Assembly (NCBI GenBank): GCA_027492205.1
Contig: JAOZFN010000009.1
Location: 64,001 to 128,000 of the forward strand
Direction: 5' to 3'
DNA: 64,000 nt
Source of the DNA: Thermoproteota archaeon
Lineage (GTDB): Archaea > Korarchaeota > Korarchaeia > Korarchaeales > Korarchaeaceae
Numbering within the stretch: the stretch's first letter is position 1; every line of letters begins with the position of its first letter. Below the pieces are notes generated by a model that searched no databases, had not been told where the DNA came from, and saw only the letters and a list, made by a program, of their open reading frames with translations. The translations under genes and the position numbers were made by a program. Positions 37,919-63,842 of this stretch are shown here, piece after piece.

Positions 37919-39259
37919 ATGGTTCGCAGGCCGAAGATCGTGGTTGAGCCCCCGGGACCCAAGGCGAGGGAACTCATCGAGATGGATCGTCAGTACCTCT
38001 CGCCAGCCCTCACCAGGACCGCCCCCCTCGTGGGATACGAAGCCGAGGGGGTGTGGGTGAGAGACCCGGACGGGAACCAGTATTTGGACTTTGGATCCGG
38101 CATAGCCGTCACCAACGTGGGGCACAGGCACCCCAAGGTCGTCGAGACCGTCAAGAGGGAGGTCGACAGGCTCATCTTCGTCAACAGCTGCGACTTCTAC
38201 ACGATCCCCCAGGTGCACCTGGCCAAGAAGCTGACGGAGATTACGCCCGGCAGCTTCAAGAAGAGGGTCTTCTTCGTGAACAGCGGGACGGAGGCGGTGG
38301 AGTGCGGGATCAAGGCCACGAGGTACTACACCCAGAGGTACTACTTCGTCGGGTTCATCAACGGGTTCCACGGCAGGACCATGGGCTCCCTGGCGTTCAC
38401 GACCACCTCACCCGCCGCCAGGAGGCGGTTCCAGCCCATGATGCCCGGCGTGGTGCACGCCCCCTACCCGTACTGCTACAGGTGCCCGCTCGGACACAAG
38501 GAGGGCTACCCGGAGTGCGGACTCGCCTGCCTCGATTACCTGGAGAACGAGATCCTCGGGCACGTGGCCCCGCCGGACGAGGTCGCCGGAATACTGTTTG
38601 AGCCCGTCCAGGGGGCGGGGGGCTACATCGTGCCGCCCGCGGAGTGGGTCAGGGGTCTCCGGAAGATAGCGGATGAGCACGGCATAGTCCTCATGGACGA
38701 CGAGGTCCAAGCCGGCATGGGCAGGACCGGGAGGTGGTGGGCCATTGAGCACTTCGGCGTCGAGCCCGACGTCGTGATGATCTCCAAGGCCATAGCCGCC
38801 GGCTTCCCCTTCGGCGCCTGCGTCGCCAGATCTGAGATACTGGAGTGGGGGCCAGGGGCCCACGAGAACACGCTCGGCGGGAACCCGGTGCTGGCCAGCG
38901 TCGCCCTGACCGTAATCGACATCATCGAGAAGGAGGGGCTGCTCGAGAACGCCAAGAAGGTGGGAGAGCACATGGTCAAGAGGCTGAGGGAGATGCAGGA
39001 GAGGCACGAGATAATAGGCGACGTCAGGGGCCTCGGGCTGATGGTGGGCGTCGAGTTCGTGAAGGACAAGCGCACCAAGGAGCCGGCGACTAAGGAGAGG
39101 AACAAGATAGTGCAGGAGGCCTTTAAGAAGGGCCTGCTGCTGCTGGGGGCTGGCAAGTCCAGCCTCAGGTTGGCCCCTCCGCTGATAATCACCGAGGAGG
39201 AGGCGGATGCGGGCCTCGACATCTTGGAGGAGACGATAAAGGAGGTCGCGGGGAGCTGA
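37919..39259 (+). CDS. class III PLP aminotransferase (4-aminobutyrate/beta-alanine/ornithine aminotransferase family)
   Basis: YLDFGSGIAV, NSGTEAVE, FHGRT, EPVQGAGG, DEVQAGMGRTG, PLP Lys in ISKAIA, TLGGNP; ATG 37919 follows a GGGGTGA SD. Confidence 0.92.
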   Translation: MVRRPKIVVEPPGPKARELIEMDRQYLSPALTRTAPLVGYEAEGVWVRDPDGNQYLDFGSGIAVTNVGHRHPKVVETVKREVDRLIFVNSCDFYTIPQVHLAKKLTEITPGSFKKRVFFVNSGTEAVECGIKATRYYTQRYYFVGFINGFHGRTMGSLAFTTTSPAARRRFQPMMPGVVHAPYPYCYRCPLGHKEGYPECGLACLDYLENEILGHVAPPDEVAGILFEPVQGAGGYIVPPAEWVRGLRKIADEHGIVLMDDEVQAGMGRTGRWWAIEHFGVEPDVVMISKAIAAGFPFGACVARSEILEWGPGAHENTLGGNPVLASVALTVIDIIEKEGLLENAKKVGEHMVKRLREMQERHEIIGDVRGLGLMVGVEFVKDKRTKEPATKERNKIVQEAFKKGLLLLGAGKSSLRLAPPLIITEEEADAGLDILEETIKEVAGS

Positions 39260-39303
39260 CGCGGGGCTCCCCGCACGTCGTTTTATGTCAAGAAGTGAAA
39301 GTC

Positions 39304-40386
39304 TCACTGGATGATCTCCCAGCGCTCCCTGGCCTCTCTCAGCTCCCTCGCCCTCTGGGCGTCGCGCACCACCTCGTGAGCCCTTTCAGGTATCCTCAGC
39401 TCCTTCTCCACGCCGAAGAGGGGGGTCGAGAAGTACCTGCGCCCGTCGTCGTTGACCATCGTGGCTATCCTCCGCAGTTCTGGCCTCCTCCTGGACAGCT
39501 TGATCGCGGCAGCCACGTTGGCTCCCGAGGATATTCCGCAGAGTATGCCCTCCTCCCGGGCCATCCTCCTAGACATCTCGATGGCCTCCTCCGAGGACGC
39601 CAAGATGACCCCGTCGACCACCCCGAGGTCCAGGTTGTCTGGGACGAAGCCGTCCCCTATGCCCTCTATTCTGTGAGATCCCCACCTCCCCTCCGCGAGC
39701 ACCGGGGCCTCTGCGGGCTCCACCACGTAGATCCTGACCCGCGGATCCCTCTCCTTTAGGTACCTGCCGACCCCGGTCACGGTGCCAGCTGTTCCGGCCG
39801 CCGCCAGGAAGGCGTCCACCTCCCCGCCCATCTGCTCCCAGATCTCGGGCCCCGTAGTCTTGTAATGCGCCTCCGGATTGGCCGGGTTGGAGAACTGGCC
39901 AGGCTCCCAGTACTTGCCGGGGTTCTTTTCCTTCAGCTCCCTGACCTTCTCGAGCGCCAGGTCGACATCGCTCTCTGCGCCGGGCACGAAGACGAGCTTG
40001 GCGCCGTACGCCCGCATCAGCATCTTCCTCTCCTCGCTCATCCCCTCGGGCATGACTATGGTCACCGGGTACCCAAGGAGCGAGCCCACCCACGCGCAGG
40101 CTATGCCCGCGTTACCAGTCGAAGCCTCGATCACCTCCATACCCGGCCTCAGCTCGCCCCTCTCGATGGCCTGTCTGAACATCTCTAGGTATATGCGGTC
40201 CTTCAGGCTACCGGTTGGGCTGAAGTACTCCAGCTTCACGTAGATGTCGGCGGAAACTCCCTCTTCCTTTGGAATCCTCCTCAGTCTGACCATCGGTGTT
40301 AAGCCAACGGCCTGCGTGATTTCATCCAGCGCCTTTGAGTGTCTCAGCCAGTCTACTCCTCCCAACAAGACACCCACGACTCTCAC
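39304..40386 (-). CDS. cysK: cysteine synthase family PLP enzyme (fold type II)
   Basis: KLEYFSPTGSLKDR, EASTGNAG, QFSNPAN..AH, GTAGT, HRIEGIG, GISSGAN; exact start uncertain. Confidence 0.8.
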   Translation of the reverse strand: MRVVGVLLGGVDWLRHSKALDEITQAVGLTPMVRLRRIPKEEGVSADIYVKLEYFSPTGSLKDRIYLEMFRQAIERGELRPGMEVIEASTGNAGIACAWVGSLLGYPVTIVMPEGMSEERKMLMRAYGAKLVFVPGAESDVDLALEKVRELKEKNPGKYWEPGQFSNPANPEAHYKTTGPEIWEQMGGEVDAFLAAAGTAGTVTGVGRYLKERDPRVRIYVVEPAEAPVLAEGRWGSHRIEGIGDGFVPDNLDLGVVDGVILASSEEAIEMSRRMAREEGILCGISSGANVAAAIKLSRRRPELRRIATMVNDDGRRYFSTPLFGVEKELRIPERAHEVVRDAQRARELREARERWEIIQ

Positions 40387-40588
40387 GTCGACCAGGAGTT
40401 AAAAGATTATCCAATATTAATCGAACTCCCAGCCAAGTGGCTGTTCAGAAGAGGTACTGAATGTCAACCGGGTATAGGCCAAAATCAGGTAGCTGTAATT
40501 GGTAATCATGCGAAAATGGTTCTTCGATCCCTCCTCGCATATGTCACCAAGTTAAATCGGCCCCTCTCTCCCGCCGCATGTGGTAACC

Positions 40589-41560
40589 ATGAGGGTTGGG
40601 CTGATCGGCTTGGGAAACATGGGGTACCGCATGGCCGAGCGCCTTCTGGATGAGGGCTTTCAGCTGATCGTGTACAACCGAACGAGGGAGAGGGCACTCC
40701 CACTGGCTGAAAGGGGAGCAGAGGTGGCCTCAAGTCCCAGAGAACTGGCCTATCGGGCGGACGTGATCATAGACATGGTCAGCGACGAGGCGGCGGTCAG
40801 GAATACGCTCTTGTCCGAGGATGGAGCCATCTACGGGGCCAGGCCCGGGGCGGTGGTGGTAGAGATGAGCACCCTCTACCCGCAGTTCGTCAGGGAGCTG
40901 GAGGAGGCGGCGAGGGAGAGGGATATAGGTCTGCTAGACGCCCCCGTGCTGGGCAGCACGACGCAGGCCAGAGAGGGTAGGCTGTCCATCATGGTAGGCG
41001 GCGATGAGGATGTCTACGAGAGGGCTCGCCCCGTTCTGGACGCGCTCGGCTCACACAGGCTGGTCGGGCCAGTCGGGATGGGGACTGCCTACAAGCTCGT
41101 GATAAACGCCATCCTGATCTCCATGGTCGGTGTCATGGCGGAGGGGCTCGCCCTCGCCGAGGCGATGGGCGTGGACCCGGAGTCGGCGCTTGAGGTGATG
41201 GGGGAGCACCCCGTGGGCAAGGCGGCCGGGTACTACTGGAGGAGGATGTTGGACGACTCCGCCCCAGTGAGGTTCGCCCTCAGGCTGGCCGAGAAGGACA
41301 TGAGGTACGTGCTCCGGACGGCGGCGGATCTCCTCAGGGAGCTTCCAATCATGGCGGAGGTCCAGCAGACCTTCCTTCGCGCGAAGAGGCTCGGCCTGGG
41401 AGATCTCGACTACTCGAAAGTGTTCAGATCGCTGGGGGACCGATCCCCGAGGCCCCCATCTAATAATCAACCATTCAGACCCGAAGGAGCACCTTCATCG
41501 ACCTCTTCGCCTCCTCGAAGGCCTCCTCGACCCTCTCCAGAGGATAAATCGCTGAGATGA
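40589..41560 (+). CDS. beta-hydroxyacid dehydrogenase (3-hydroxyisobutyrate dehydrogenase / tartronate semialdehyde reductase family)
   Basis: IGLGNMG, YNRT, EMST, DAPVLG, catalytic KLVIN, KDM. Confidence 0.9.
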   Translation: MRVGLIGLGNMGYRMAERLLDEGFQLIVYNRTRERALPLAERGAEVASSPRELAYRADVIIDMVSDEAAVRNTLLSEDGAIYGARPGAVVVEMSTLYPQFVRELEEAARERDIGLLDAPVLGSTTQAREGRLSIMVGGDEDVYERARPVLDALGSHRLVGPVGMGTAYKLVINAILISMVGVMAEGLALAEAMGVDPESALEVMGEHPVGKAAGYYWRRMLDDSAPVRFALRLAEKDMRYVLRTAADLLRELPIMAEVQQTFLRAKRLGLGDLDYSKVFRSLGDRSPRPPSNNQPFRPEGAPSSTSSPPRRPPRPSPEDKSLR

Positions 41561-42407
41561 GGTCGTCCACCCTCACCAGCCCGCGCCTGAGGAGCGAGAT
41601 CGCCGCCTCAAATGGCCCGCACCTGCTCCCCACTACTCTCACCTCCTTCACCACCAGGGATGGATCGACCACGGCGCCCTCCGCGGTGGTGGACTTCAGA
41701 ACGACCGTTCCCATCGGTTTGACCAGGCGCAGGGCCGTCTTCAGACCTTCTGGCCTGCCAGTGCACTCGACGACCACGTCTGCCGCGTTCTCTATCCCCT
41801 CCGCGCTGCCCCGTAGCTCCGCTCCCAGTCCGCGGAGGAGGCGGAGCTTCCAGTCGTTCCTGTCGATGACGGTGAGCCTGCACCCGGTGAGGGCCAGTAC
41901 CCTCGCCACCAGCTGGCCCAGCCTGCCCGCCCCCAGGACAACCGCCCGATCTCTGGGCCTCACCCGTGCGGACTCCAGCACCCTCAGGGCCGCCGCAAGG
42001 GGCTCTGTGAACACAGCCACCTCGTCTGGAATCTCATCTGGGACCGGATGGAGGTTCTCCTCGGGTATTGCCACGAGATCGGCCATGGCGCCGTCTCTGG
42101 TGAGGCCTATTACCTCTCTGCGGAGGCAGTGCTCCCTCACGCCGGCCCTGCAGAACTCACACTCGCCGCAGCCGACGTTGATCTCTCCGACCACCCTCAT
42201 CTCGGCGTACTTTCCGTACTGGGCCACGCCGACGAACTCGTGTCCCGGGACCCCGGAGAATCCCTTGTAGCCCCTGAGGAGTTCCAGGTCCGTCCCGCAT
42301 ATCCCCGCGAGCTTGACCCTAACCAGGACCTCGCCTGGCCGGGGCCTAGGGTCCTTGTAATCCGGGACGAACCTGACGCGCCCTCCCCCGATCACCGCCG
42401 CCCTCAA
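41475..42407 (-). CDS. zinc-dependent medium-chain dehydrogenase/reductase
   Basis: GICGTD, GHEFVG, CGECEFC...C structural Zn, LGAGRLG, GSRCGPF. Confidence 0.9.
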   Translation of the reverse strand: MRAAVIGGGRVRFVPDYKDPRPRPGEVLVRVKLAGICGTDLELLRGYKGFSGVPGHEFVGVAQYGKYAEMRVVGEINVGCGECEFCRAGVREHCLRREVIGLTRDGAMADLVAIPEENLHPVPDEIPDEVAVFTEPLAAALRVLESARVRPRDRAVVLGAGRLGQLVARVLALTGCRLTVIDRNDWKLRLLRGLGAELRGSAEGIENAADVVVECTGRPEGLKTALRLVKPMGTVVLKSTTAEGAVVDPSLVVKEVRVVGSRCGPFEAAISLLRRGLVRVDDLISAIYPLERVEEAFEEAKRSMKVLLRV

Positions 42408-42458
42408 ATCAACACCGAGGGGGCCGGGCGGGTGACACAGAAATAGGTGCGGGAGGGT

Positions 42459-43433
42459 TCAGTCCGGGACTATCCAGGTCCCGGTCTTCCCCTCCAGAGC
42501 GTCGAGGGCCTTCTCCAAGTGGGTGATTATAGCGGCCTTCCCGCCGGCCTCCTCGATGAACCTGATGCAGGCCTTGACCTTCGGGCCCATGCTACCGGGC
42601 AGGAAGTGTCCCTCCTCGAAATACTTCTTGGCCTCGGAGACGGTCATCCTGTCTATTTCCCTCTCGTCGGGCTTCCCGTAGTTCAGCTTGACCTTCTCCA
42701 CATCGGTGAGGATCACGAAGATGTCCACCCCCAGAACCTCGGCCAGCCTCTCGCCGGCGAGATCCTTGTCGATGACCGCCTCGACGCCCTTTATCTTCCC
42801 GTCCTCCTCGATGACCGGTATCCCACCGCCTCCGCTTGCGATCACTATGATGCCGCTGTCGTAGAGCTTCTTGATCGCGTCAGCCTCTAGCGGCCTGATG
42901 GGATCCGGGGAGGGGACGACCCTCCTGTAGGGCTTGTCGGCGTTGGGCTTCACCTTCTTGATGACCCACCCTCTCTCCTCCGCCAGCCTCTTTGCGGTCT
43001 CCTCGTCGTAGAACGGGCCCACGGGCTTCGATGGGTCCTGGAAGTCCGGGTCATCCTTCCGAACGAGAACCCTAGTGACGACCGTGGCCGCCAGCTTGTC
43101 GAGGCCCACCTTCCTGAACTCGTTCATGAGGGCCTGCTGGAGCATGTACCCGATCTGGCCCTGGGTCATGGCCCCGCACACATCCATGGGCTGAGGTGGA
43201 ATTCCAAGCCTCTGCCCCTCCTCCTGCTGAATGAGGAGCGCGCCCACCTGAGGCCCGTTCCCGTGGGTTATGGCCAGGTGGTACCCCCTCTGCACTAGCT
43301 TGGCCAGCTGGGCGGCGGTCTTCTCCACGTTTCGGAGCTGCTCCTCATAGGTGCCCTTCTCCTGAGCCTGCTTTATGGCGTTCCCTCCCAGGGCGACAAG
43401 TATCTTCTTCCCCAAGTCCGTCAAGCGCTTCAC
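42459..43433 (-). CDS. arcC: carbamate kinase
   Basis: [46 protein letters not shown]. Confidence 0.96.
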
Positions 43434-43509
43434 CTCCGAGAGCGACGAGGTCCGCCCTCCGGAGGGTTAAAAACATGTATCCAATCAGCCCCCCGAGGGT
43501 GGAGGGGGC

Positions 43510-44658
43510 CTGGACGGTGGAGATGAGGTTGTCAAGTTCTGCTATAGGCTTGTCCAGACTCCAAGCCTCTCGGGGGAGGAGGGCGAGGTAGCTGGCCTGA
43601 TCAGAGATGAGATGAACTCACTGGGATTCGACAGGACGTGGGTGGATCGGGCTGGAAACGTCGGAGGTTTGATCAGGGGGTCTGGGTCGGGGCCCGTGGT
43701 GGTCCTGGAGGGGCACATGGACACGGTCCCCCCAGGGAGGGCGGAGGAGTGGGGGGTCGATCCCCTCTCCGGGGAGGTCAGGGACGGCTGGCTGTACGGC
43801 AGGGGGTCCGTCGACATGAAGGGGGCCATAGCGGCCATGGTTCACTCCGCCCTCCTACTGGACTCGGCGGACGCGGACGTGTACATGGCCTTCGTGGTGC
43901 ACGAGGAGGACCAGGAGGGCTTCGGAATCAGGGTGTTCCTTGAGGAGGCAGGAATAAAGCCTGATCTCGTGGTCTTGGGGGAGGCCACGAGGCTCAACGT
44001 GGCCGTGGGGCACAGGGGCAGGGTCGAGATCAGGCTCTCCGCCGGGGGAAGGACGGCCCACTCCAGCATGCCCGATCTGGGGGACAGCGCGCTCTACAAG
44101 TTGGTGGAGGCGCTGGTCAGGCTCAGGGGGATCTCGGGAGAGCTGCCCGAGCACGAGGTCCTGGGGAGGTCCACCGCCTCTCCGGTTGCGATACGCTGCT
44201 CGCCCGGGGTCATTCCCGTCATCCCAGACTCTTGCGAGGTCCTGGTGGACTACAGATTGGTGCCTGAGGAGACGCTCGAGTCGATCCTGTCTAGGATGAG
44301 GTCGCTGAAGCCGGGAATCGAGGCCTCGGTCGTAACCAAGACCATAAGGTGCTACACCGGCCTCGAGGAACGCGTGAGGGCGTACTTCCCGGCCTGGTAC
44401 ATGCCCAGCGAGTTCGCGAGCCTGGTGGTGGGGGAGCTGAGCGGCGAGCTGGTGACTTGGAGGTTCGGAACGGACGGTTCCTACACAGCCGGGGAGGCGG
44501 GAATCCTCACGATTGGGTACGGGCCGGGCGACGAGACCCTGGCCCACAGGCCGAACGAGAGGGTCAGGGTGGCCGACCTGAGGGCGGCCGCGCGGGGGTA
44601 CGCCAGCATAGTCAGGCTGGCCGAGGATCACCTGCCTAGGGGCTCGGGCAGGTCATGA
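43510..44658 (+). CDS. M20 family amidohydrolase, YgeY-like
   Basis: LVQTPSLSGEE (upstream of ATG 43612), DRAGNV, GHMDTV, YGRGSVDMKG, VHEED..G, GHRGR, WRFGTDG, GPGDETLAH; start placed at CTG 43510 after GGAGG. Confidence 0.85.
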   Translation: MDGGDEVVKFCYRLVQTPSLSGEEGEVAGLIRDEMNSLGFDRTWVDRAGNVGGLIRGSGSGPVVVLEGHMDTVPPGRAEEWGVDPLSGEVRDGWLYGRGSVDMKGAIAAMVHSALLLDSADADVYMAFVVHEEDQEGFGIRVFLEEAGIKPDLVVLGEATRLNVAVGHRGRVEIRLSAGGRTAHSSMPDLGDSALYKLVEALVRLRGISGELPEHEVLGRSTASPVAIRCSPGVIPVIPDSCEVLVDYRLVPEETLESILSRMRSLKPGIEASVVTKTIRCYTGLEERVRAYFPAWYMPSEFASLVVGELSGELVTWRFGTDGSYTAGEAGILTIGYGPGDETLAHRPNERVRVADLRAAARGYASIVRLAEDHLPRGSGRS

Positions 44659-45082
44659 GGTCCCTGCTCACGAGCACCACTGGAATCCTGACGCTGTCGG
44701 CCAGCTTCTCCGCAGGACATCCTCGGAGGGCCCTCAGCAGGCCTGAGCCCATGGATCGAGTGGGGATGACCAGCAGGTCGTGCCCCTCCACGGACTCCAC
44801 CAGGGCGGTTTCGACGTCCCTCGACAGGGCCACCTTGGCCCTGGCCGTCAGGCCGTGCTCCGCCAGACTGCTGACCAGCGCGTCGAGCCACTCGAGCGCC
44901 TCACGGGAGGGCTCCCTCAGGGCGGAGGCCTCGAGGGGGCTCGTCCTGGGCACCGTCACCACGTGGAGTAGGGTCACCTCCGCCGAGGTCAGTCCGAGGG
45001 TCCCGGCCAGAAGGCCCACGAGGCACTCGGCGCTGACCGGCTCGTCCAAGAGAACCAGAACTCTCTTACCGGCCTCGCTCAC
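44636..45082 (-). CDS. universal stress protein (UspA domain)
   Basis: RVLVLLD, VTLLHVV, HDLLVI, LRGCPAEKL...IPVVLV. Confidence 0.8.
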   Translation of the reverse strand: MSEAGKRVLVLLDEPVSAECLVGLLAGTLGLTSAEVTLLHVVTVPRTSPLEASALREPSREALEWLDALVSSLAEHGLTARAKVALSRDVETALVESVEGHDLLVIPTRSMGSGLLRALRGCPAEKLADSVRIPVVLVSRDLMTCPSP

Positions 45083-45348
45083 TCCTCCAGCAGCCTCCCC
45101 ATCCTCTTGTGCGTGTGGAGCACGACGAGGCTGTTGGAGCCGTTGATGCCCTGCTTCTTCAGAATCCTCTTCACGAGGACGCTCCTGAAGTGCTCTATGG
45201 ACTCCGCCTCGACTATCAGGACAAGGTCCTGGTCTCCCGTGACCTCGAACAGGTCGACCACCTCGGGCATCTGCTTGAGTTCGTCGACCAAGGACTCCAG
45301 ATACTTCGCCTCGACATAGAGGTTGATTATCACAAGCATGGAACTCAC
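45079..45348 (-). CDS. stand-alone Lrp/AsnC ligand-binding (RAM) domain protein
   Basis: MPEVVDLFEVTGDQDLVL signature; about 86-89 aa; no HTH. Confidence 0.85.
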   Translation of the reverse strand: MSSMLVIINLYVEAKYLESLVDELKQMPEVVDLFEVTGDQDLVLIVEAESIEHFRSVLVKRILKKQGINGSNSLVVLHTHKRMGRLLEE

Positions 45349-47201
45349 CTCCTGAGGACCAACACCTTCCCGGGAAGCCTCGCCGACACCACCCTGGCCA
45401 GGCCCCTCTCTTTAGACTTCATGGCCCGCCTCGACGTGAGCACCACGACGAGGTCGTACCTGTCGCTCGCGCCCTCCATGACAGCCACTTCCACCGGCTC
45501 TCCGTACATAACGGAGGTCGTCGCGAGGATTCCCTTGGATCTCAGCATCTTAGCCGTCTCCGCAAGTAGGGCGAGCGTCCTATCGGTCTCCCTGGAGAGC
45601 TCGTCGGGTGACATGCCCGCGGGGTTGACGACGCTGAGCAGGTGAACCCTGAACCTCCCTCTGAGGCCCTCGGCAACGGCGCGGGCCACCTTCTCCGGAT
45701 CGTCGTAGGGCCTGAAGAGCACTAGGGCGTCCATGAGGTAGTTGGCGGGCCTGGACATCTCCCCACTTATCCTCCCGGTGATCGGAAGGCCCGCCGCCGT
45801 CCGGTAGGCCGCGAAGGCCACGAGGCCAGCCACGAACCACGCCGTTCCCAGGGATCGCCCGACCGGGTGGAGGGCAGCCACCAGGGCGAGCATCACGCCG
45901 GTGGCCAGGGCGCCCAGGAGCCCAACCAGTGGGATCTCCCTCCCACCGACCTTGATGGAGCCCGGCGCCCTCCACGGCCGGTAGGCGTCCCTGTCCAACT
46001 CCCTCAGCCGTATCATGGAGACGTTCACCAAGACGTAGGAGACGAGGGCCCCGAACGCGTACACATCCGCGATCTTCTCAAGACTGCCGAGCAGCGTCAA
46101 GAGCCCCCCGAGGAGGCCGAAGATCACTATGGTCCTCACCGGCGTCCTGAAGCGAGGGTGTATCGCCTTGAACCAAGAGGGCATCAGCCGGAACCTGCCC
46201 ATGGAGTAGACCACCCTCGAGACTCCGATTATCCCCGTGTTGGCGGAGACCAGGTTTATCACGAATCCGGTGGCAGCAACCAGCGCCGGGGCGACTCCGC
46301 CGATCACGGGGAGGGACTCCGCCAAGACGGTGAGGGGCCTCTCCGCGTTCTCGGCCAGGGGCCGCCAGCCGACGGTCCCCACCCCCACCAGGGAGAGCCC
46401 CAGCGCGAAGACCAGAACGGCGGCCACCGATAGCTTGGTGGCAAGCGGAATCCACTTGTAGGGCCTCTTTATCTCCTCGGCCGCCTGGGCGATGGACTCC
46501 ACGCCTATGAAGGAGCTCATGGCCAGCGTGGTGCCGTAGATGAAGTTCTGCTCCCTAACGCCGATGCCCGGTAGGTAGGCGACCTCCTCCCTCACCCCAG
46601 GGAAGCCCACCTGTGAGAGGTTCGCCCTGAGCGTTTCCGCCCTGACGCAGGCCAAGCCTATCAGAAGAAGGATGCCCTGAACTGCCAGGCCGAGGGAGAC
46701 CATTATCTCGTTCAACCTGGAGGACTCCCTGATCCCGACCAAGTTCAGCAGTATCAGGGCGGCTATCATGACTATGGAACACAGGGCGAACCCGTTCAGC
46801 TTGACGCCCAGTAGGCTGTGGGAGAATGAGGCTATTTTAGGGAAGAAATACGATAGGTAGCCAGCCGACGCCATGGAGAACAGGGCGATGTCCACGGTGT
46901 AGCTCAGGAGCAGGGCCCACCCCGCAACAAAACCGGCGAGGTCCCCCAGCCCCCTCGCCGCGTAGACCTGGGCTCCGCCGGCGTATGGGTAGGTTGAGGA
47001 CAGCTCAGCGTACACCAGCCCTGTGAGGACGTAGGCCACGGATGCGAGGCAGAAGGCAAGCGGGAGCCCTCCAGCCGCGTAGGCCGCCACCAGACCGAGC
47101 GCTATGAATATGTCGGCGCCGACATCGGCGTATCCCATGGCGAAGGAGCCGAACCACCCTACGTCCCTTTTCAGAGAGACCTCCCGCCCTCCCTCGGCCA
47201 G
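45345..47201 (-). CDS. APC-family amino acid permease with C-terminal UspA-like domain
   Basis: LKRDVGWFGSFAMGYADVG, YAELSSTYPYAGG, FIGVESIAQAAEE, SRVVYSMGR, HPRFRTP, RPWRAP; start placed at CTG 47201 (first ATG 47138 falls within TM1). Confidence 0.88.
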   Translation of the reverse strand: MAEGGREVSLKRDVGWFGSFAMGYADVGADIFIALGLVAAYAAGGLPLAFCLASVAYVLTGLVYAELSSTYPYAGGAQVYAARGLGDLAGFVAGWALLLSYTVDIALFSMASAGYLSYFFPKIASFSHSLLGVKLNGFALCSIVMIAALILLNLVGIRESSRLNEIMVSLGLAVQGILLLIGLACVRAETLRANLSQVGFPGVREEVAYLPGIGVREQNFIYGTTLAMSSFIGVESIAQAAEEIKRPYKWIPLATKLSVAAVLVFALGLSLVGVGTVGWRPLAENAERPLTVLAESLPVIGGVAPALVAATGFVINLVSANTGIIGVSRVVYSMGRFRLMPSWFKAIHPRFRTPVRTIVIFGLLGGLLTLLGSLEKIADVYAFGALVSYVLVNVSMIRLRELDRDAYRPWRAPGSIKVGGREIPLVGLLGALATGVMLALVAALHPVGRSLGTAWFVAGLVAFAAYRTAAGLPITGRISGEMSRPANYLMDALVLFRPYDDPEKVARAVAEGLRGRFRVHLLSVVNPAGMSPDELSRETDRTLALLAETAKMLRSKGILATTSVMYGEPVEVAVMEGASDRYDLVVVLTSRRAMKSKERGLARVVSARLPGKVLVLRR

Positions 47202-47233
47202 CTGAGATCCCGGTCAGCCCGCTGATGCTCAGA

Positions 47234-47241
47234 TCATAAAA
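47234..47241 (-). promoter_or_regulatory. TATA box for the APC permease operon
   Basis: TTTTATGA 33 nt upstream of CTG 47201. Confidence 0.5.
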
Positions 47242-47391
47242 GGTGATCGCCCGTGAAGCGGAGAGACCGATCGGCGAACCCCCTCTGCTAAACCGGGGGT
47301 TCAGACGCTATCCTACACTACCGAGATTACCGGTTAACCCAAACGGACCCGGAGCATTCCGCGGGTTAGATTGTAAAGGAGTAGGGGGAGG

Positions 47392-47397
47392 AAAAAA
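47392..47397 (-). terminator. oligo-T terminator closing the AOR operon
   Basis: T6 about 18 nt after the stop at 47415. Confidence 0.5.
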
Positions 47398-52677: not shown

Positions 52678-52680
52678 CCC

Positions 52681-53184: not shown

Positions 53185-53228
53185 AAAAACCACCTCCCAA
53201 CCCATTTCGCCTACCTCGCGGGACAAGG

Positions 53229-53234
53229 AAAAAA
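53229..53234 (-). terminator. oligo-T tract immediately after the preA-like gene
   Basis: TGA followed by ATTTTTT on the minus strand. Confidence 0.35.
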
Positions 53235-53235
53235 T

Positions 53236-54423: not shown

Positions 54424-54428
54424 CGTGC

Positions 54429-56363
54429 TCACCTCCACCTACCGGCCAGCTCGCCTAGGCCGAGTTCCCTCAGGGTCTCGTCCTTGGGCACGCCTGTCTC
54501 CTTGTCTATGCCGGCGGCCTCGTAGTAGTCGTCCAGCATCTCGTGGAGCCTGCAGACGTGGCCCTTCGCCGGTCCGGTGGGCATGGGCTCTTTCAGGAAC
54601 CTATCTGGGAGCGTGTCGTCCTTCCTCCTGAGTCCCTCCCTCACGTTGAACATCCTCCTATGGATGGCTATCCTCTTGGCTATCCTCTTGACCTCGTTGG
54701 GGTCGCCGAACTCCGCTATGCCCGTGGCCGCGGCGGCGGCCCTGGCCATGTCGGGGTAGTAGAAGACGGGCGGCCAGCCGACCTCGTACCAGCATATTAT
54801 CAGGGAGTTGCCAAGCGCGTAGAGCATCTCAAGGTCCCAGACGAGCCAGCCCTTGTACCTGGTAGATTGGGGATCCACTAGATCCTTCACCTTGTCTGCA
54901 CCGTACCTCTCCGCGGCCACCTGCTCGTACCCCCTCTCCTCGAGGCAGGAGAGCGAGGTGAGGTGGTCGGCCCCCCTGGCGGCCGTCGCGTGCGTCAGCC
55001 CGGAGGACTGGTGGGCCCTGCCGTCTTGGGCGGAGATCTCGTTGCCCTTAACGTGCATCGCGAACCTCTCGGTCCCCCTGCCTATGATCTCGGAGGCCCT
55101 CTTGCTCCCCTCCGCTATCATGTTCCCGAACCCCTCTCTGAAGGCCGTCTTCTTCACCAGCTCGACCATGGCCTCCGCGTTGCCCCAGCTCAGGTCAAGT
55201 CCTCCCGTTTCCTCCTTCGTCAACAGGCCGTGCTCCCAGCTCTCCATGGCCCACGCAATCGTCATTCCCAGAGAGATCGAGTCCATCCCGTAGAGGTCGG
55301 CCAGGTGGTTGGCGTAGAAGACCGCCTCGACATCCTCGACGAGCAGGCTGGACCCAAACGACACCAGGGCCTCGTACTCAGGTCCCTTGTAGATCCCGGC
55401 GTAGGGCTCCTTCCTCGACCTCACGAAGTACTTGCACTGCACCAGGCAGCCGAAGCAGCTGGCCTGCTTGACCCTGAACTCCTCCCTGATCCTCTCCCCC
55501 CCAATGAGGTGCGCCTTCTCCCAGTAGCCGGTCCAGTGGTTCTTGACCGGCATCCTCCCCATGGCGTTTATGGCCTCTACCAGGTTTGGCGTCCCGTACT
55601 TGGTGAGCGTCTCCTTCAGCGCGTCGCCCCAGTCCACCAGGAGCTTCCTGTATGCGTCATCGACGACCTCCATGAAGAGCTCGGGCTTCGCGACCCGAAC
55701 CCCCCTGCTCCCCCTTACGGCTATGGCCTTGAGCCTCTTGGAGCCCATGACCGCGCCCATGCCCGTCCGGCCGGCCGCGTTGCCGAGGTCGTTGATGATG
55801 GAGGCGAACCTCACCGTGTTCTCTCCGGCCGGGCCGATGGCCGCGACCTTGAACGTCTCGTCCCCGAGCTCCTCCCTGATCATCTGTATGGTCTCGAAGG
55901 TCGTCTTCCCGCCGTAGAACCTACCGTTCCTCTCCTCGCCCCAGAGGTGGCTGGCGTCCCTCAGCTCGACGAGGTCGTCGTCGATGACCAGGTAGACCGG
56001 CCTCTCCGCCCTGCCCTGTATCACGATGAAGTCGTATCCTGCGAACTTGAGCTCGGGGCCGAAGAATCCGCCGGCGTTGGCGTGACCCCAGATCCCTGTG
56101 AGGGGCGACTTGGCGTTCACCTGGTACCTCCCCGCCGCCGGGAACATGGTGCCGGTCAGGGGGCCCGTGGAGATGACGAGCCTGTTGTCCGGCCCGAGCG
56201 GGTCCGTGTGCTCGTCCACCTCGTCCCAGAGTATCTTGACCGCGAACCCCAGACCGCCCAGGTAGTTTCTGATGAGCTCCTTCGGGGTCTCCTTTACCCA
56301 GACCTTCCCGGACGAGAGATCCACCCTCAGGTACCGCCCCGCGTATCCGCCCAACTCCACCAC
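54429..56363 (-). CDS. aor: aldehyde:ferredoxin oxidoreductase family (W-pterin) protein, paralog 3
   Basis: GYAGRYLRVDLS, KSPLTG, GAVMGSKRLKAI, CFGCLVQC, GPEYE, RGADH. Confidence 0.92.
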   Translation of the reverse strand: MVELGGYAGRYLRVDLSSGKVWVKETPKELIRNYLGGLGFAVKILWDEVDEHTDPLGPDNRLVISTGPLTGTMFPAAGRYQVNAKSPLTGIWGHANAGGFFGPELKFAGYDFIVIQGRAERPVYLVIDDDLVELRDASHLWGEERNGRFYGGKTTFETIQMIREELGDETFKVAAIGPAGENTVRFASIINDLGNAAGRTGMGAVMGSKRLKAIAVRGSRGVRVAKPELFMEVVDDAYRKLLVDWGDALKETLTKYGTPNLVEAINAMGRMPVKNHWTGYWEKAHLIGGERIREEFRVKQASCFGCLVQCKYFVRSRKEPYAGIYKGPEYEALVSFGSSLLVEDVEAVFYANHLADLYGMDSISLGMTIAWAMESWEHGLLTKEETGGLDLSWGNAEAMVELVKKTAFREGFGNMIAEGSKRASEIIGRGTERFAMHVKGNEISAQDGRAHQSSGLTHATAARGADHLTSLSCLEERGYEQVAAERYGADKVKDLVDPQSTRYKGWLVWDLEMLYALGNSLIICWYEVGWPPVFYYPDMARAAAAATGIAEFGDPNEVKRIAKRIAIHRRMFNVREGLRRKDDTLPDRFLKEPMPTGPAKGHVCRLHEMLDDYYEAAGIDKETGVPKDETLRELGLGELAGRWR

Positions 56364-56366
56364 GCA

Positions 56367-56861
56367 TCACCCCTGGGGGACTATCAGTGAGATCAGCCTG
56401 GCGGACCTCTGGGCCCCGTCCACCTTCTTCTGGTAGCCAACCTGGTCGGCCCTGACCCACTTGATGGCGCCCGTGGGGCACCTCCTGGCGCACTGCGGGT
56501 CTCCGCCGCAGAGGTCGCACTTCACCACCTGGAAGGTCACCGGGTCCACCTGAATGCCGCCGAACGGGCAGGCGTTGAGGCACTGCTTGCACTCTATGCA
56601 CTTGGACTTGTCGAGGAAGACGGCGTTGCCGAACTGGTATAGGGCGCCGGTCGGGCAGGCCTCGACGCAGAGGGGCTTGCCGCAGTGCTGGCAGGTCATG
56701 GGGATGAAGACGCCCTCGAAGTCATTCCTCAGGACCTGTATGTAAGATCGCCTGGGGTTGAACTCGCCGTAGTGATGGAAGGAGCAGGCCTCTTCACAAA
56801 TCCTGCACCCGGTGCACTTGTCGGGGTCTATTACCAAGAGGTTCTGAACCCCCTCAACCAT
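56367..56861 (-). CDS. 4x[4Fe-4S] polyferredoxin electron-transfer subunit
   Basis: CTGCRICEEAC, CQHCGKPLCVEACP, CIECKQCLNACP, KCDLCGGDPQCARRCP; ATG 56861 after GGTGA. Confidence 0.9.
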   Translation of the reverse strand: MVEGVQNLLVIDPDKCTGCRICEEACSFHHYGEFNPRRSYIQVLRNDFEGVFIPMTCQHCGKPLCVEACPTGALYQFGNAVFLDKSKCIECKQCLNACPFGGIQVDPVTFQVVKCDLCGGDPQCARRCPTGAIKWVRADQVGYQKKVDGAQRSARLISLIVPQG

Positions 56862-57036
56862 GTGATCACCGCCAGCCCTGAATGGGCCGAACAAGGGGCT
56901 CCCACAGAGACCAAATAAATCATGGGATGGGAATTCGAATTCAGAACGTTATCCTCTCTGGGTATATCGAGTCAGGGGCAATGGAAAGGGCGCCATCTGA
57001 TAGAGCGGAGCTTGAGGAGAGGGCGGTTATCGCGAG

Positions 57037-57042
57037 AAAAAA
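57037..57042 (-). terminator. oligo-T terminator after the BMP gene
   Basis: CCCCC followed by T6 about 19 nt after the stop. Confidence 0.5.
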
Positions 57043-57060
57043 GGGGGAGAGATTTTTGGT

Positions 57061-58365
57061 TCAGCCGCCCAGGGCCGGCCCGACTACGTTGTCGACCCAC
57101 CACTGCATGGACCAGAGCTCGTCGTGGCCTAGCCTCTGGCCGGCCATGACCCTCAGCGTCCCCTGGTCGTCGTAGATGGGACCGGTGAAGGGATCGAAGA
57201 CCTCGTCGTTCACGAACACCCACCCGCTGCCTGTCCAGACCGCGCCCATCTGGATGAGCCTGGCCATCACGAGGGTGTAGACATCCGGGTTCTCGATTAC
57301 GGTGCCGTTGGGCAGCTGGATGGTCTCCTGGACCCTGACGGACTTGAGCTCGTTGATGAACTTGGGGTTGATCGGCTGGTTGAAGGCGCAGCCCAGCTCG
57401 ACGGAGCCCTCCTTCAGCTTCCACCAGTAGTCTACGTTCTGCAGGTTCTGGGTGTTGTAGGAACCGGAGTATATCTTGCTCAGGATGTCGTCGTAGATCA
57501 CCTCCCAGTGCACCAGCTGACCGCTGACGCAGACGTCGGGACCGTATTCAAGCATCGGGCTGTAGTGGCCGAAGGCGAGGACCCTCTCGCCCCTCTCGAA
57601 GTGCTCCTGGGCGACCTGGACGACGGTCGGCGAGTCCTCCGTGAATGCCAGCACGTCGACGCCCTCGGAGATCAGGGCCTCGGCGGCCTGCCTGGCCTTG
57701 GTCGGATCGTACCAGGCGCCTATCTCCCTGACGTAGACCTTGCAGTCGGGGCAGACCTCCTTGACGCCCAGCGCGAAGGCGTTGATGTGCCTCACCACCT
57801 CGGGGATCAGGTGCGCGGCGACGTAGCCGATCTTCTTGGTCTGTGTCAGGGCGCCGGCCATCAGGCCGTTCAGGTAGTAGACCTGGTAGAAGTCGGCGAA
57901 GTAGGTGCCCATGTTGGGAGCCCTCTTGTAGCCGGAGCAGTGCCAGAAGATCTTGTCGGGGTGCTTCTGGGCCTCCTCGAGGGTCGGATCCATGAAGTCG
58001 AAGCTTGTGGTGAAGATCACGTCGTAGCCCTTGCCGATCAGCTGCTCTATCACTCCGGCGCACTCGGCCGGGGCGACCGACTCCACGTGGGTGGTCTCCA
58101 GCCAGTCGTACTTCTGGTCGACCATCTCCTTAGCGGCGTGGTGAGCGTAAGTCCAACCGATGTCCCCGATCGGTCCAACGTAGATCCATGCCGCCTTGAT
58201 CTTCTTGGCTGGGGGTGCCTCGCACGGAGGGCAGGTTGCCGGGGCCGGGGTTTCGGTCGGACACGGGGGGCACTCCGCCGCGCCCTTCGGCGCCGCAAGG
58301 TACCCGATCGCCGCCCCGACTATGATGCCGACTATAACTAAGGCAGCCCACTGGGAGGAGGTCAT
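57061..58365 (-). CDS. BMP family (purine/nucleoside) ABC substrate-binding protein
   Basis: AAWIYVGPIGDIGWTYAH, IFTTSFDF, HCSGYK, IPEVVRHINAFALG, WYDP; N-terminal TM; ATG 58365 after GGAGG. Confidence 0.92.
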   Translation of the reverse strand: MTSSQWAALVIVGIIVGAAIGYLAAPKGAAECPPCPTETPAPATCPPCEAPPAKKIKAAWIYVGPIGDIGWTYAHHAAKEMVDQKYDWLETTHVESVAPAECAGVIEQLIGKGYDVIFTTSFDFMDPTLEEAQKHPDKIFWHCSGYKRAPNMGTYFADFYQVYYLNGLMAGALTQTKKIGYVAAHLIPEVVRHINAFALGVKEVCPDCKVYVREIGAWYDPTKARQAAEALISEGVDVLAFTEDSPTVVQVAQEHFERGERVLAFGHYSPMLEYGPDVCVSGQLVHWEVIYDDILSKIYSGSYNTQNLQNVDYWWKLKEGSVELGCAFNQPINPKFINELKSVRVQETIQLPNGTVIENPDVYTLVMARLIQMGAVWTGSGWVFVNDEVFDPFTGPIYDDQGTLRVMAGQRLGHDELWSMQWWVDNVVGPALGG

Positions 58366-58416
58366 GTCTATCCCTCCCACGGAGAGCGTGGGTGAGTTGA
58401 TTGCCGATTTGATGCC

Positions 58417-58430
58417 CATAAATTTTTCCC
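58417..58430 (-). promoter_or_regulatory. BRE plus TATA promoter of the BMP gene
   Basis: GGGAAAAA-TTTATG about 52 nt upstream of ATG 58365. Confidence 0.6.
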
Positions 58431-58433
58431 GGG

Positions 58434-58547
58434 AGTCGAAAAGCTAACCCCGCCGCCCGGGCGTTCGGCCGGGGGCGGCCAGCGACCCGTTATCGCGAGA
58501 TGGATAACGCAGTCGAAAAGCTAACCCCGCCGCCCGGGCGTTCGGCC
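58434..58547. repeat. perfect 37-nt direct repeat (58434-58470 and 58511-58547) with a 40-nt spacer
   Basis: agtcgaaaagctaaccccgccgcccgggcgttcggcc occurs twice; the spacer holds the inverted repeat cgttatc-N8-gataacg. Confidence 0.92.
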
Positions 58548-58735
58548 CGGTAAAACGGACGTCTTACCCGAGAAAAGCGGGCATCGCCCCCAAATTGTTA
58601 AAATATTGTATCCATAATCGTTCGTTGTCAACATTTTCAAGAAGACTGCGGCAGGCGCTGATCGATCATAGGGCGAGTTCCCGACCCACCGGGGGCCCGC
58701 CGGCCCGGCCTCAAATGAGGGGTGAGGGGGAGGGG

Positions 58736-59680
58736 CTACTTCTCTCCCCTCACGTAGGGCACTCCGAGTGCTGCCGGAGCCCCCATTCTCCTCCTCATGG
58801 TCTCCGTGGCGCCGGCGGTGAGAACTATCACCGTTAATAGGTACGGCACTCCGTTCAGGAGCCACTGGCTGTACCCGTAGGCCTGCAGGGTGTACCCCCC
58901 GGCCTCGACGACTCCAAACAGGTAGGCCCCGAATATTGCCCTCAGCGGGTTCCAGAGGGCGAATATCGTGAGCGCCAGCGCTATCCATCCCCTGCCAGCT
59001 GTCATGTTCTCTATCCAGGCCGGGCTGTAGGCCACCGACAGGTAGGCCCCGGCCATGCCGGCCAGGGCCCCTCCAAGGGCTGTGCAGGCGTACCTCACGA
59101 GGTAGACGTTAATTCCGAGGGCGTCGGCGGCGGCGGGGTTTTCGCCCGTTGACCTGATAACTATCCCCACCTTGGTCCTGTAGAGGACGAACCAGAGGAC
59201 GACGGCGATAACTATGCTGAGGTAGAATAGCGGCTCCTGGTCGAACAGGGCCTTACCCACCAACGGGAGCTTGACTAGGCCCTCCGAGAGGGGCTTTGGG
59301 AGGAACCTCGCCTTGACGGGTAGCTGATAGCCGACGTACTTTCTCCCGATCACGCTGCTCAGCCCGAGCCCGAACATCGTGAGGGCCAGGCCGGAGACGA
59401 CCTGATTGCCCCGGAGGTGGATGCTGATTACCCCGTGTATGAGGGACATTAGTAGGCCGACCGCCGTCGCCACGGCCACGCCCAGCCAGGGGTTGCCCGT
59501 GGTCAGTGCGGTGATGAAGGCGGATACCGCCCCCATTATCATCATGCCCTCGACGCCCAGGTTGAGTATTCCCGACCTCTCGGCGTAGATCTCGCCGAGA
59601 GAGGCCAGGAGGAGGGGGGTCGCCGATCTGAAACCGACCCACAGGATGTTCTCAACCACCGACAGGTCCATCCGCATCAC
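58736..59680 (-). CDS. nucleoside (CUT2-type) ABC permease
   Basis: TPLLLASLGEIYAERSGILNLGVEG, NQVVSG, GENPAAAD, GRGWIALA, PAALGVPY. Confidence 0.92.
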   Translation of the reverse strand: MMRMDLSVVENILWVGFRSATPLLLASLGEIYAERSGILNLGVEGMMIMGAVSAFITALTTGNPWLGVAVATAVGLLMSLIHGVISIHLRGNQVVSGLALTMFGLGLSSVIGRKYVGYQLPVKARFLPKPLSEGLVKLPLVGKALFDQEPLFYLSIVIAVVLWFVLYRTKVGIVIRSTGENPAAADALGINVYLVRYACTALGGALAGMAGAYLSVAYSPAWIENMTAGRGWIALALTIFALWNPLRAIFGAYLFGVVEAGGYTLQAYGYSQWLLNGVPYLLTVIVLTAGATETMRRRMGAPAALGVPYVRGEK

Positions 59681-60753
59681 CTCCTGAGCTGGATCCTGTA
59701 TCGTAGGAGGAAGTCACCGGCGAGGACGAAGAAGAGGACGGCTCCGTTGAACATGTCCACGACGCCGATCGGGAGCTTGTAGTCGATCATGATGTACTGG
59801 CCACCCACCAGGAGCCCTCCGAAGAGGAAGTTGGCGATCAGCAGGCCGATCGGGTTGACGCCGCCGAGCCAGGCCGTGATTATGCCCGTGAAGCCGTACC
59901 CCGAGAGGAACTCGGGCGTGAACCGATGCTGGATGCCCGCGAACTCCCCGACGCCCGCCAGCCCGGCTAGGCCGCCGCTTATGATCATGGCCAGGGTAAC
60001 GGTCCTCAGGTAGCTGATCCCGGCCGCCCTAGCGGCCTCGGGGTTGTCGCCCACAACCTTCATCTCGTAGCCAGCTGTCGTGTAGTTCAGAAACACGTAC
60101 ACCCCAACGGCGGCGAGTATGGAGAGGATTAGCGTGGGCCAGTGGATCCTGGTCTCCCCGATCACAGGCAGCCAGGCGTTCTTGGATATGATCTCTGTGT
60201 GCGCGAACCCCCCGTACGTGAGCTGACCGACCCTCTCCCTGGCCTTCCAAGGCCCGTGAATGAGGTGCTGGAAGACCCAGTAGATGACGTAATAGAGCAT
60301 CAGGGTTGATATGACGTCGTTCACGTTCAGCTTCGCCTTCAGGACCGCGGGCGGGATTCCCCAGGCCGCGCCGGCCGCGAACCCGACCAAGAACATGGAT
60401 GGTATGAGCGCGATGGACGACGCGTCCGGGAACGTCCTGGCCACCACGTAGGCCGCCATCGCCCCCACCAGGAGCTGACCCTCGGCCCCTATGTTCCAGA
60501 AGCCAGTCTTGAAAACCAGCGCGAGTCCGGCGCTGACGAGCAGGAGGGGCATCATTCTCACTATGGTCTCGGTGAGGCCGACCTTTGTGCCAAACGCGTT
60601 GAAGAAGATGGACCTGTAGACGTCAAGCGGGTTCACCCCATACGCGTAGAATATGACGGCCACCGCTAGCAGGGCCAACACGACGGATCCTATCCTGACG
60701 GCGAGGGCGAACCTTCTGGGCACAACCACGCGCTTCCGAACTATCACCCTCAT
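59677..60753 (-). CDS. nucleoside (CUT2-type) ABC permease
   Basis: FWNIGAEGQ, VISTLML, GDNPEAARAAGI, SGGLAGLAG, GYGFTGI..AWLG. Confidence 0.92.
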   Translation of the reverse strand: MRVIVRKRVVVPRRFALAVRIGSVVLALLAVAVIFYAYGVNPLDVYRSIFFNAFGTKVGLTETIVRMMPLLLVSAGLALVFKTGFWNIGAEGQLLVGAMAAYVVARTFPDASSIALIPSMFLVGFAAGAAWGIPPAVLKAKLNVNDVISTLMLYYVIYWVFQHLIHGPWKARERVGQLTYGGFAHTEIISKNAWLPVIGETRIHWPTLILSILAAVGVYVFLNYTTAGYEMKVVGDNPEAARAAGISYLRTVTLAMIISGGLAGLAGVGEFAGIQHRFTPEFLSGYGFTGIITAWLGGVNPIGLLIANFLFGGLLVGGQYIMIDYKLPIGVVDMFNGAVLFFVLAGDFLLRYRIQLRR

Positions 60754-62318
60754 GAGGCCATCTCCTCCCTGGCCAGCCTCCTGGCTCCGGCCATCATCAG
60801 CCCTATCTCCTCAATCGAGGCCTCTTCTGGCCTGACTATGCCGACGATTTCACCGTTGAACATCACCCCAACCCTGTCGCTGAGCTGGAGCACCTCCTCG
60901 AGGTCCTCGGAGATTAGGAGCACGGCGGCCCCTCTCTTCCTCTGTTCGAGCAGGATCCGGCGGATGTACTCGGTCGCACCGACGTCCAGCCCGTAGGTGG
61001 GGTGGGCGGCCACGATGAGCCTGGGCTCTTTGTGGAGTTCCCTGGCGCATATCAGCCTCTGGATGTTCCCCCCGGACAGGAGCTTCGCCGGGGTCAGGGG
61101 GCTTGGGGTCACTATGTCGAACTTGTTGATGAGCCTCTCAGCATCCTCGATCACCTTAGAGTGGTCCAGGAGCAGCCCCCTCCTGTAGGGCTCCTTGTAG
61201 TAGTCCTTGAGGATGAGGTTCTCGGCGACGCTCAGGTTGGGTACGATGCCGTGCCTCAGCCTCTCCTCCGGAATGTGGGCCACCCCCCTGGAGGCGATGA
61301 ACCTGGGCGACTTGTTTGTGACATCTACCCCGTCTATGAGTACTCGGCCCGCGGTGGCCTTCCTGAGTCCTACTACGACCTCCGCAAGCTCTCTCTGACC
61401 GTTCCCCGCGACCCCGGCTATGCCGAAGATCTCGCCCTCGTGGACCCTGAAGCTTACCCCCCTGACCGCGGGGAGCCCCCTGTCGTTCAGGGCGTGTAGG
61501 TTCTCCACCTCCAGGACGGGCTTACCCCTCGAGACGCGTTCCTTCTCCAACCTGAACAGGACTTCCCTGCCCACCATCATCCTCGCGAGCTCCTCCTTAG
61601 TCGTCTCGCTGGCCTTCAGGGTGCCTACGACCTTCCCCCTCCTCATGACAGTGACCCGGTCGGCGACCTCGAACACCTCGTCCAGCTTGTGCGTGATGAA
61701 GATTATGCCCTTGCCCTCGTCCCTCATCCTCTTGATGATCTTGAACAGCTCCCTCGTCTCCTGCGGGGTCAGCACCGACGTCGGCTCGTCGAGTATAAGT
61801 ATGTCGGCGCCGTGGTAGAGGGCCTTGATTATCTCGACCCTCTGCTGCTCGCCCGCGGAGAGCTGCCAGATGTAGGCGTCCGGATCGACCTTGAGCCCGT
61901 ACTTCTCGGCGAACTCCCTGAGCCTCTCCTTTATCTCCTTCAACGGGTTCAGCAGGCTCTCGGCGTACCCCAGGGCTATGTTCTCCGCCACCGTGTGCCG
62001 ATCCACGAGCATGAAGTGCTGGTGGACCATCCCTATCCCGAGGCTCATCGCGTCCCTGGGGCTCCTGATCTCGACCCTCCTGCCCCTGACGTAGATCTCG
62101 CCGCCGTCCGGGTAGTATATCCCATAGAGTATGTTCATCAGGGTGGTCTTCCCGGCGCCGTTCTCGCCGAGGAGGGCGTGTACCTCTCCGGGCCTCAGCT
62201 CGAAGTTGACGTGGTCGTTGGCCAGCACTCCGGGGAATCTCTTCACGATACTGACCATCTTAACGAGGAGGTCGGTTTCTCGGGGCTCGCTCGCCACGGC
62301 GGTAGCCTCAGAGGCCAA
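60750..62318 (-). CDS. nucleoside (CUT2-type) ABC ATPase with tandem NBDs
   Basis: ANDHVNF, GENGAGKTT, GMVHQHF, DEPTSVL, GVAGNGQ, LSGGNIQR, PTYGLDVG. Confidence 0.94.
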   Translation of the reverse strand: MASEATAVASEPRETDLLVKMVSIVKRFPGVLANDHVNFELRPGEVHALLGENGAGKTTLMNILYGIYYPDGGEIYVRGRRVEIRSPRDAMSLGIGMVHQHFMLVDRHTVAENIALGYAESLLNPLKEIKERLREFAEKYGLKVDPDAYIWQLSAGEQQRVEIIKALYHGADILILDEPTSVLTPQETRELFKIIKRMRDEGKGIIFITHKLDEVFEVADRVTVMRRGKVVGTLKASETTKEELARMMVGREVLFRLEKERVSRGKPVLEVENLHALNDRGLPAVRGVSFRVHEGEIFGIAGVAGNGQRELAEVVVGLRKATAGRVLIDGVDVTNKSPRFIASRGVAHIPEERLRHGIVPNLSVAENLILKDYYKEPYRRGLLLDHSKVIEDAERLINKFDIVTPSPLTPAKLLSGGNIQRLICARELHKEPRLIVAAHPTYGLDVGATEYIRRILLEQRKRGAAVLLISEDLEEVLQLSDRVGVMFNGEIVGIVRPEEASIEEIGLMMAGARRLAREEMAS

Positions 62319-62492
62319 GTTTCCCCCCGACCGCCTTTTTCGGGAACCATATTAATCTAACACTGGGGGGCGACCCGGCCAGCCCTAGAACGAGGTTAAT
62401 TCTCAAAACCAATTGCCCCACGAGTCGCTCCCCGTAGCCACCTTCGGACAGGGGCCAAACGTTCGGGTGCCTGTTATTAGAAAGGTCCTCCG

Positions 62493-63842
62493 ATGTCCCA
62501 CCAGCCGGAGGGGTGCGCGGTGATACTGTCGGGAAAGTGGGTTGTGACCTTTCAGGGGGGAGTCGACCTCGTAGAGGACGGGGCCGTCCTCGTCGAGGGC
62601 AGCGTGATCAAAGACGTGGGGCCCAAGGGGCGGATAGTCAAGGAGAACCCCGGTGAAGATGTGATCGAGTTCCCCAAATCGGTAATCATGCCAGGGCTGA
62701 TATGTGCCCACTGCCACGCATACGGCGCCTTCGCCAGGGGGATGCCGCTGAAGGTTGAACCCCCGACGAGGTTCGTGGAGATCCTGGAGAGGATATGGTG
62801 GCACCTTGACAAGAGGCTCACTCTGGACGACGTCTACTACAGCGGGCTGGTCACGGCGATAGAGGCCGTCAGGCACGGGACCACCACGGTGTTCGACCAT
62901 CACGCCAGCCCCTTCGCCATCACCGGCAGCTTGGAGAGGCTCGCCGAGGCGTTCAGGAAGGTCGGCGTCAGGGCCAACATAGCCTACGAGGTCTCGGACA
63001 GGGACGGTCTCGACAGAGCTGAGGAGGGGATCAGGGAGAACGTCGAGTTCATCAAGAGGCACCAGGGAGAAGAGTTCATCACTGGGAGCTTCGGCCTACA
63101 CGCCCAGCTCACCCTCTCGGACGAGACGCTCGAGAAGGTCGTCGAGGCGGCCAGGGGCCTTGACACTGGATTTCACATCCACGTGGCCGAGGGGATCGAG
63201 GATGTCTTCGACAGCCTCCAGAAGTCTGGGAGGAGGGTAGTCGAGAGGCTGTGGGCGGCGGGCATACTCGGCGAGAAGACCATAGCAGCACACTGCGTCC
63301 ACGTGAACGACAGGGAGATCAGGATTCTGAGGGACACTGGGACGAACGTGGTCCACAACCCCGAGTCCAACATGAACAACGCCGTGGGCGTGGCCCCAAT
63401 AGTCAGGATGATAGAGCTCGGCATCAGGCCCGCGCTGGGCACGGACGGCTTCACGATGGATGTGTTCAGGGAGTCAAAGGTCGCCTACATACTCCACAAG
63501 CTCCACATGGCGGACCCCAGGGTCATGGGGGCCGACAAGGTGGTGGAGATGCTGTTCCACAACAACTCCGAGCTGGCGGCCAAGTACTTCCCCAAGCCCC
63601 TCGGCAAGATCGTCCCGGGAGCGTTCGCCGACCTTGTGGTGCTGAGCTACAGGCCGTACACGCCCATGCACGAGGGGAACTTCCCGTGGCACTTCATATT
63701 CGGCATGGACGCCTCCCACGTTACGGACGTGTTGGTGGACGGGAAGTTCGTGGTGAGGAACGGAGAGCTCCTCACGGTAGACGAGGAGCAGATCTTTGAG
63801 GAGGCGCAGGAGCTGGCCCAGGCGCTTTGGGACCGGCTCTGA
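62493..63842 (+). CDS. ssnA: SsnA-like metal-dependent aminohydrolase
   Basis: MPGLICAHCHAY..FARG, WWHLD, GTTTVFDHHASP, YEVSDRDG, GLHA..TLS, HIHVAEG, HNPESNMNNAVG, GTDG; alternative GTG start 62520. Confidence 0.88.
   Translation: MSHQPEGCAVILSGKWVVTFQGGVDLVEDGAVLVEGSVIKDVGPKGRIVKENPGEDVIEFPKSVIMPGLICAHCHAYGAFARGMPLKVEPPTRFVEILERIWWHLDKRLTLDDVYYSGLVTAIEAVRHGTTTVFDHHASPFAITGSLERLAEAFRKVGVRANIAYEVSDRDGLDRAEEGIRENVEFIKRHQGEEFITGSFGLHAQLTLSDETLEKVVEAARGLDTGFHIHVAEGIEDVFDSLQKSGRRVVERLWAAGILGEKTIAAHCVHVNDREIRILRDTGTNVVHNPESNMNNAVGVAPIVRMIELGIRPALGTDGFTMDVFRESKVAYILHKLHMADPRVMGADKVVEMLFHNNSELAAKYFPKPLGKIVPGAFADLVVLSYRPYTPMHEGNFPWHFIFGMDASHVTDVLVDGKFVVRNGELLTVDEEQIFEEAQELAQALWDRL

Follow-up and report, generated by a model that had tools for sequence, protein, structure and literature searches.

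A conserved archaeal gene module that may link aldehyde:ferredoxin oxidoreductases to reductive purine-base breakdown

In the bacterial reductive uric-acid/2,8-dioxopurine pathway, thermodynamics disfavour the reduction step, and Enterococcus requires formate as a co-substrate (Li et al.). Bacterial UacX and PydAc have no FAD domain and receive electrons from reduced ferredoxin or viologen. In a separate set of enzymes, AorAB and WorSL, published work has described iron–sulfur nanowires that are each capped by one terminal flavoprotein module, with three WorSL units per plug in A. mobile. The locus analysed here combines homologues of both systems.

Within the window, the 64-kb stretch of archaeal DNA that we analysed, the first-pass annotation had proposed a nucleobase-catabolism island of about 26 kb, related to the bacterial ssnA/hyuA/ygeY/carbamate-kinase cluster, with aldehyde:ferredoxin oxidoreductases (AORs) in place of xanthine dehydrogenase. 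Gene calls based on Pfam and NCBIfam models placed every gene type on its list where it had been reported (Table 1), and its assignment to nucleobase catabolism is supported. Three genes, encoding an MDR alcohol dehydrogenase, a Usp protein and an APC permease, were additional to that list. The proposed extent held for the right-hand 16.5 kb (47,415–63,842), a solid core of SsnA, a BMP-type ABC importer and a seven-gene operon; for the left third (37.9–47.1 kb), synteny was confined to a single congeneric genome, G001. We read the core as a conserved archaeal module, a version of the bacterial pathway in which a purine base is imported and degraded reductively under anaerobic conditions, with electron input from AORs and polyferredoxins, and give this reading slightly less than even odds (about 0.45).

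Table 1. Genes of the island and its left-hand neighbours (model cut-offs in parentheses after bit scores)
Feature	Position	Strand	Evidence
IOR-type 2-oxoacid:ferredoxin oxidoreductase	beta 32816–33436, alpha 33449–35413	-	POR, TPP_enzyme_C, POR_N, Fer4
ADP-forming acyl-CoA synthetase alpha	35511–36854	-	Succ_CoA_lig, CoA_binding
Class-III (omega) aminotransferase	37871–39259	+	PF00202 397 bits; NF004426 612 (552)
CysK-type fold-II PLP enzyme	39304–40386	-	TIGR01136 363.5 (344); TIGR01139 356 (351)
HIBADH-family beta-hydroxyacid dehydrogenase	40580–41560	+	NAD_binding_2, NAD_binding_11; under all equivalog cut-offs
MDR Zn-dependent alcohol dehydrogenase	41475–42407	-	ADH_N, Glu_dehyd_C, ADH_zinc_N
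Carbamate kinase	42459–43433	-	TIGR00746 434 (358)
YgeY-like M20 hydrolase, candidate ureido/carbamoyl-amino-acid hydrolase	43471–44658	+	Canonical-start ORF 43612–44658; NF009555 296.4, just short of cut-off (321), alignment from model position 45
Usp (universal stress protein)	44636–45082	-	PF00582 32 bits
APC-family amino-acid/amine permease, loosely linked	45345–47138	-	PF13520
AOR3, last gene of operon	47415–49364	-	AFOR_N/AFOR_C; best solved match 1aor, E 9e-141
Cyclic amidohydrolase (hydantoinase/allantoinase/dihydropyrimidinase type)	49355–50713	-	PF01979; TIGR03178 330.5 (357.9), TIGR02033 294.6 (393); under every equivalog cut-off examined, HyuA included
AOR2	50710–52677	-	AFOR_N/AFOR_C; best solved match 9mqx_D (WorL of A. 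mobile), E 3e-141
Polyferredoxin 2, AorA/WorS-like	52681–53226	-	Fer4_11 and other Fer4 models
DPD/PydA/UacX-like FMN reductase, C-terminal 2 x [4Fe-4S] domain	53236–54438	-	PF01180, Fer4
AOR1, pterin-dependent aldehyde:ferredoxin oxidoreductase family, AOR sensu stricto branch	54429–56363	-	AFOR_N, AFOR_C; best solved match 1aor, E 6e-136
Polyferredoxin 1, AorA/WorS-like, 4 x [4Fe-4S], first gene of operon	56367–56894	-	Best solved match AorA 8c0z_C (E 1e-35), then WorS 9mqx_E
BMP-family substrate-binding protein, purine-base-binding branch	57061–58419	-	PF02608 138.5 bits
ABC permease 2 (BPD_transp_2)	58736–59680	-	PF02653 146 bits
ABC permease 1 (BPD_transp_2)	59677–60753	-	PF02653 141 bits
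ABC ATPase, two ATP-binding domains, CUT2-type	60750–62318	-	PF00005 in two stretches
SsnA (ring-opening amidohydrolase, reductive purine pathway)	62493–63842	+	NF005540 554.8 bits (444); TIGR03314 531 (455.5)

The operon runs polyferredoxin, AOR, DPD/UacX-like reductase (hereafter UacX), polyferredoxin, AOR, cyclic amidohydrolase and AOR, tightly coupled by intergenic gaps of 3, -10, 9, 3, -4 and -10 nt, and its polyferredoxin–AOR–flavoprotein order is that of aorA–aorB–aorC. SsnA is divergent from the ABC operon, in which permease 1 overlaps each flanking gene by 4 nt. Reading by eye, we also saw a TTTATTT element about 20–30 nt 5' of polyferredoxin 1 and an oligo-T run 3' of the BMP stop codon. 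Ten further genomes of the phylum carry SsnA orthologs (61–94% identity). The order from SsnA through the importer to the second AOR and the amidohydrolase, with or without the last AOR, is kept in five of the nine contig sets around SsnA relatives (G001, G003, G004, G009 and G015), the same five in which the double ATPase is syntenic. These represent two genera of the family, and identities drop to 50–76% in the second.

The AORs and polyferredoxins resemble the characterized nanowire components. Polyferredoxin 1 has 16 invariant cysteines in four CxxCxxCxxxC-type groups (alignment A3), and polyferredoxin 2 is 48–53% identical to it and its orthologs. P. furiosus AOR, WorL and AorB are the best solved matches of the operon AORs. 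In AOR1, alignment showed that the cysteine ligands of the cofactor are kept, as are the equivalents of the catalytic Glu and His, which we take to be Glu313 and His448. We looked for WtpA as a pointer to the metal, tungsten or molybdenum, and did not find it. The reductase scored 199 against the PreA model, below the cut-off of 335, and is thus not a PreA equivalog; it has no FAD/NAD domain, and eight cysteines in its C terminus are invariant. Alignment with pig DPD shows about 12 residues missing from its active-site loop; the absent part is the DPD loop with the catalytic cysteine, and one of what we take to be the three uracil-binding Asn positions of DPD is Ser. The reductase may act on a substrate other than those used by PydA or bacterial UacX, the direct comparison here being that with DPD.

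Profile searching of genome contigs with the UacX alignment returned 38 loci. At 53% identity or above, a polyferredoxin and/or AOR was adjacent in 11 of 11 loci, including Bathyarchaeia- and Thorarchaeota-labelled MAGs, and an AOR in 10; at 42% or below, neither was adjacent in any of 27. A metagenome scan yielded 80 loci, 45 of which have an AOR within 4.5 kb of UacX; among the 24 loci flanked by 5 kb or more on each side, 11 do. Related lineages and repeated assemblies turn up more than once in all such locus counts, which therefore do not consist of independent cases. A second, paralogous module on contig C5 of the same genome reads UacX2–AOR–polyferredoxin–M20–TRZ/ATZ hydrolase–hydantoinase-like–AOR. 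The AOR clade thus co-localizes with SsnA or SsnA-like, cyclic amidohydrolase and DPD-like reductase genes in several lineages, and this linkage exceeds chance and is not unique to the present genome.

The importer and the neighbours of UacX point to a purine substrate. The best solved relatives of the BMP protein are 3s99 (E 2.5e-63) and AtzT, 6pi5 (E 1.9e-56). According to PMC6834077, AtzT binds guanine at 0.11 μM, adenine at 2.5 μM and pyrimidines at 620 μM or weaker, with no GTP binding seen, and the 3s99 structure contains modelled adenine. The predicted BMP importer is present, but its nearest solved relatives bind purine bases and not the nucleosides first proposed, and by this relationship we place the protein in the purine-base-binding branch. 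An SsnA-like hydrolase adjoins UacX in 23 of 24 well-flanked metagenome loci, and SsnA was the best NCBIfam model for 8 of 10 sampled neighbours; such a constant neighbour of the reductase is shared with the bacterial 2,8-dioxopurine pathway. Loci without AORs carry two AOTC-like carbamoyltransferases, carbamate kinase, an SsnA-like gene, UacX and a fold-II PLP enzyme, a set that fits the two-ureido chemistry of Li et al.

Several left-hand genes also recur beside UacX. In 7 of 80 metagenome loci, homologs of carbamate kinase (50–58%) adjoin both UacX and the SsnA-like gene, and a class-III aminotransferase homolog (62%) lies within locus L126. In L086, a 51% homolog of the CysK-type enzyme is directly 3' of UacX and a 40% homolog of the YgeY-like hydrolase is near it; in L085, a ThrC-like fold-II enzyme follows UacX. 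The fold-II PLP enzyme of the first-pass annotation is present as a CysK type rather than YgeX, for which it is a possible stand-in; equivalogs of YgeW, YgeX and YgfK were not found in the genome, which has an AOTC-like carbamoyltransferase 24 kb from the island. The YgeY-like gene has about 30–44 extra coding-like N-terminal residues without an in-frame ATG, GTG or TTG, and this upstream frame is coding-like in G001 as well. The APC permease also follows AOR3 in L033 and G001, and G003 has no match to any island protein in the 3.5 kb beyond AOR3. Two plus-strand ORFs with no family match, 41557–42270 and 44655–45146, were rejected as antisense artefacts of the MDR dehydrogenase and Usp genes, respectively. 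The IOR-type and acyl-CoA synthetase genes, outside the originally proposed island, possibly belong to it: in the AOR-less metagenome locus L128, the genes immediately upstream of UacX are homologs of them (57%, 44% and 53%), closer than the paralogs in this genome (39–47%).

By analogy with the bacterial pathway, the reductase would act on the purine by dearomatizing its pyrimidine ring, both rings would be opened by SsnA and the cyclic amidohydrolase, and the YgeY-like hydrolase and AOTC-like carbamoyltransferase would then remove the ureido groups. Carbamate kinase would yield ATP, and the CysK-type enzyme or aminotransferase would handle the C3 product. Most likely, the low-potential electrons for the ring reductase come from the AorAB/WorSL-type AOR–polyferredoxin units, which would be its dedicated input module. 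Aldehydes would be oxidized at the AOR pterin sites, and electrons would pass through the 4x[4Fe-4S] polyferredoxins and the two clusters of the reductase to FMN, so that the reductase would stand where the known complexes have AorC, an FAD subunit, or WorABC, a bifurcating plug. As candidate donors, the aldehydes may arise when peptide fermentation decarboxylates 2-oxoacids, or may be made by the neighbouring alcohol dehydrogenase and aminotransferase.

The proposal that AORs act in place of xanthine dehydrogenase fared differently in different genomes. The window is free of Xdh-type domains, as first reported, but PF02738 matched twice across the genome, each time on contig C4, where two Xdh-type Mo hydroxylase gene sets adjoin an allantoinase-like gene. 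The substitution therefore fails for this genome, in which a special role for AORs is not forced. PF02738 was not found in seven other module-bearing genome records, so replacement of Xdh by AORs is still a live idea for those lineages. The AORs may act on the heterocycle or oxidize semialdehydes instead of simply feeding electrons.

AORs beside catabolic genes could also be in part a by-product of the abundance of this family, which has 11 genes in this genome. The module AORs of all lineages form one group in the AOR tree (88/87), separate from five further AORs that this genome encodes, and an AOR3-type clade (100/99) takes in Thorarchaeota-labelled copies adjoining hydantoinase–polyferredoxin genes. 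In a tree of 93 UacX sequences, 61 were linked to AOR or polyferredoxin, 17 were undeterminable and 15 were unlinked, the last spread over three clades. With 15 of 76 judgeable loci unlinked, AORs are not obligatory partners, which means that the core chemistry operates in their absence; in the AOR-less L126 and L128, an IOR-type ferredoxin-reducing enzyme is directly upstream of UacX. Returning to AORs as electron donors, their union with iron–sulfur 'wires' and anaerobic purine ring-opening enzymes suggests that purine breakdown can be powered in a new way.

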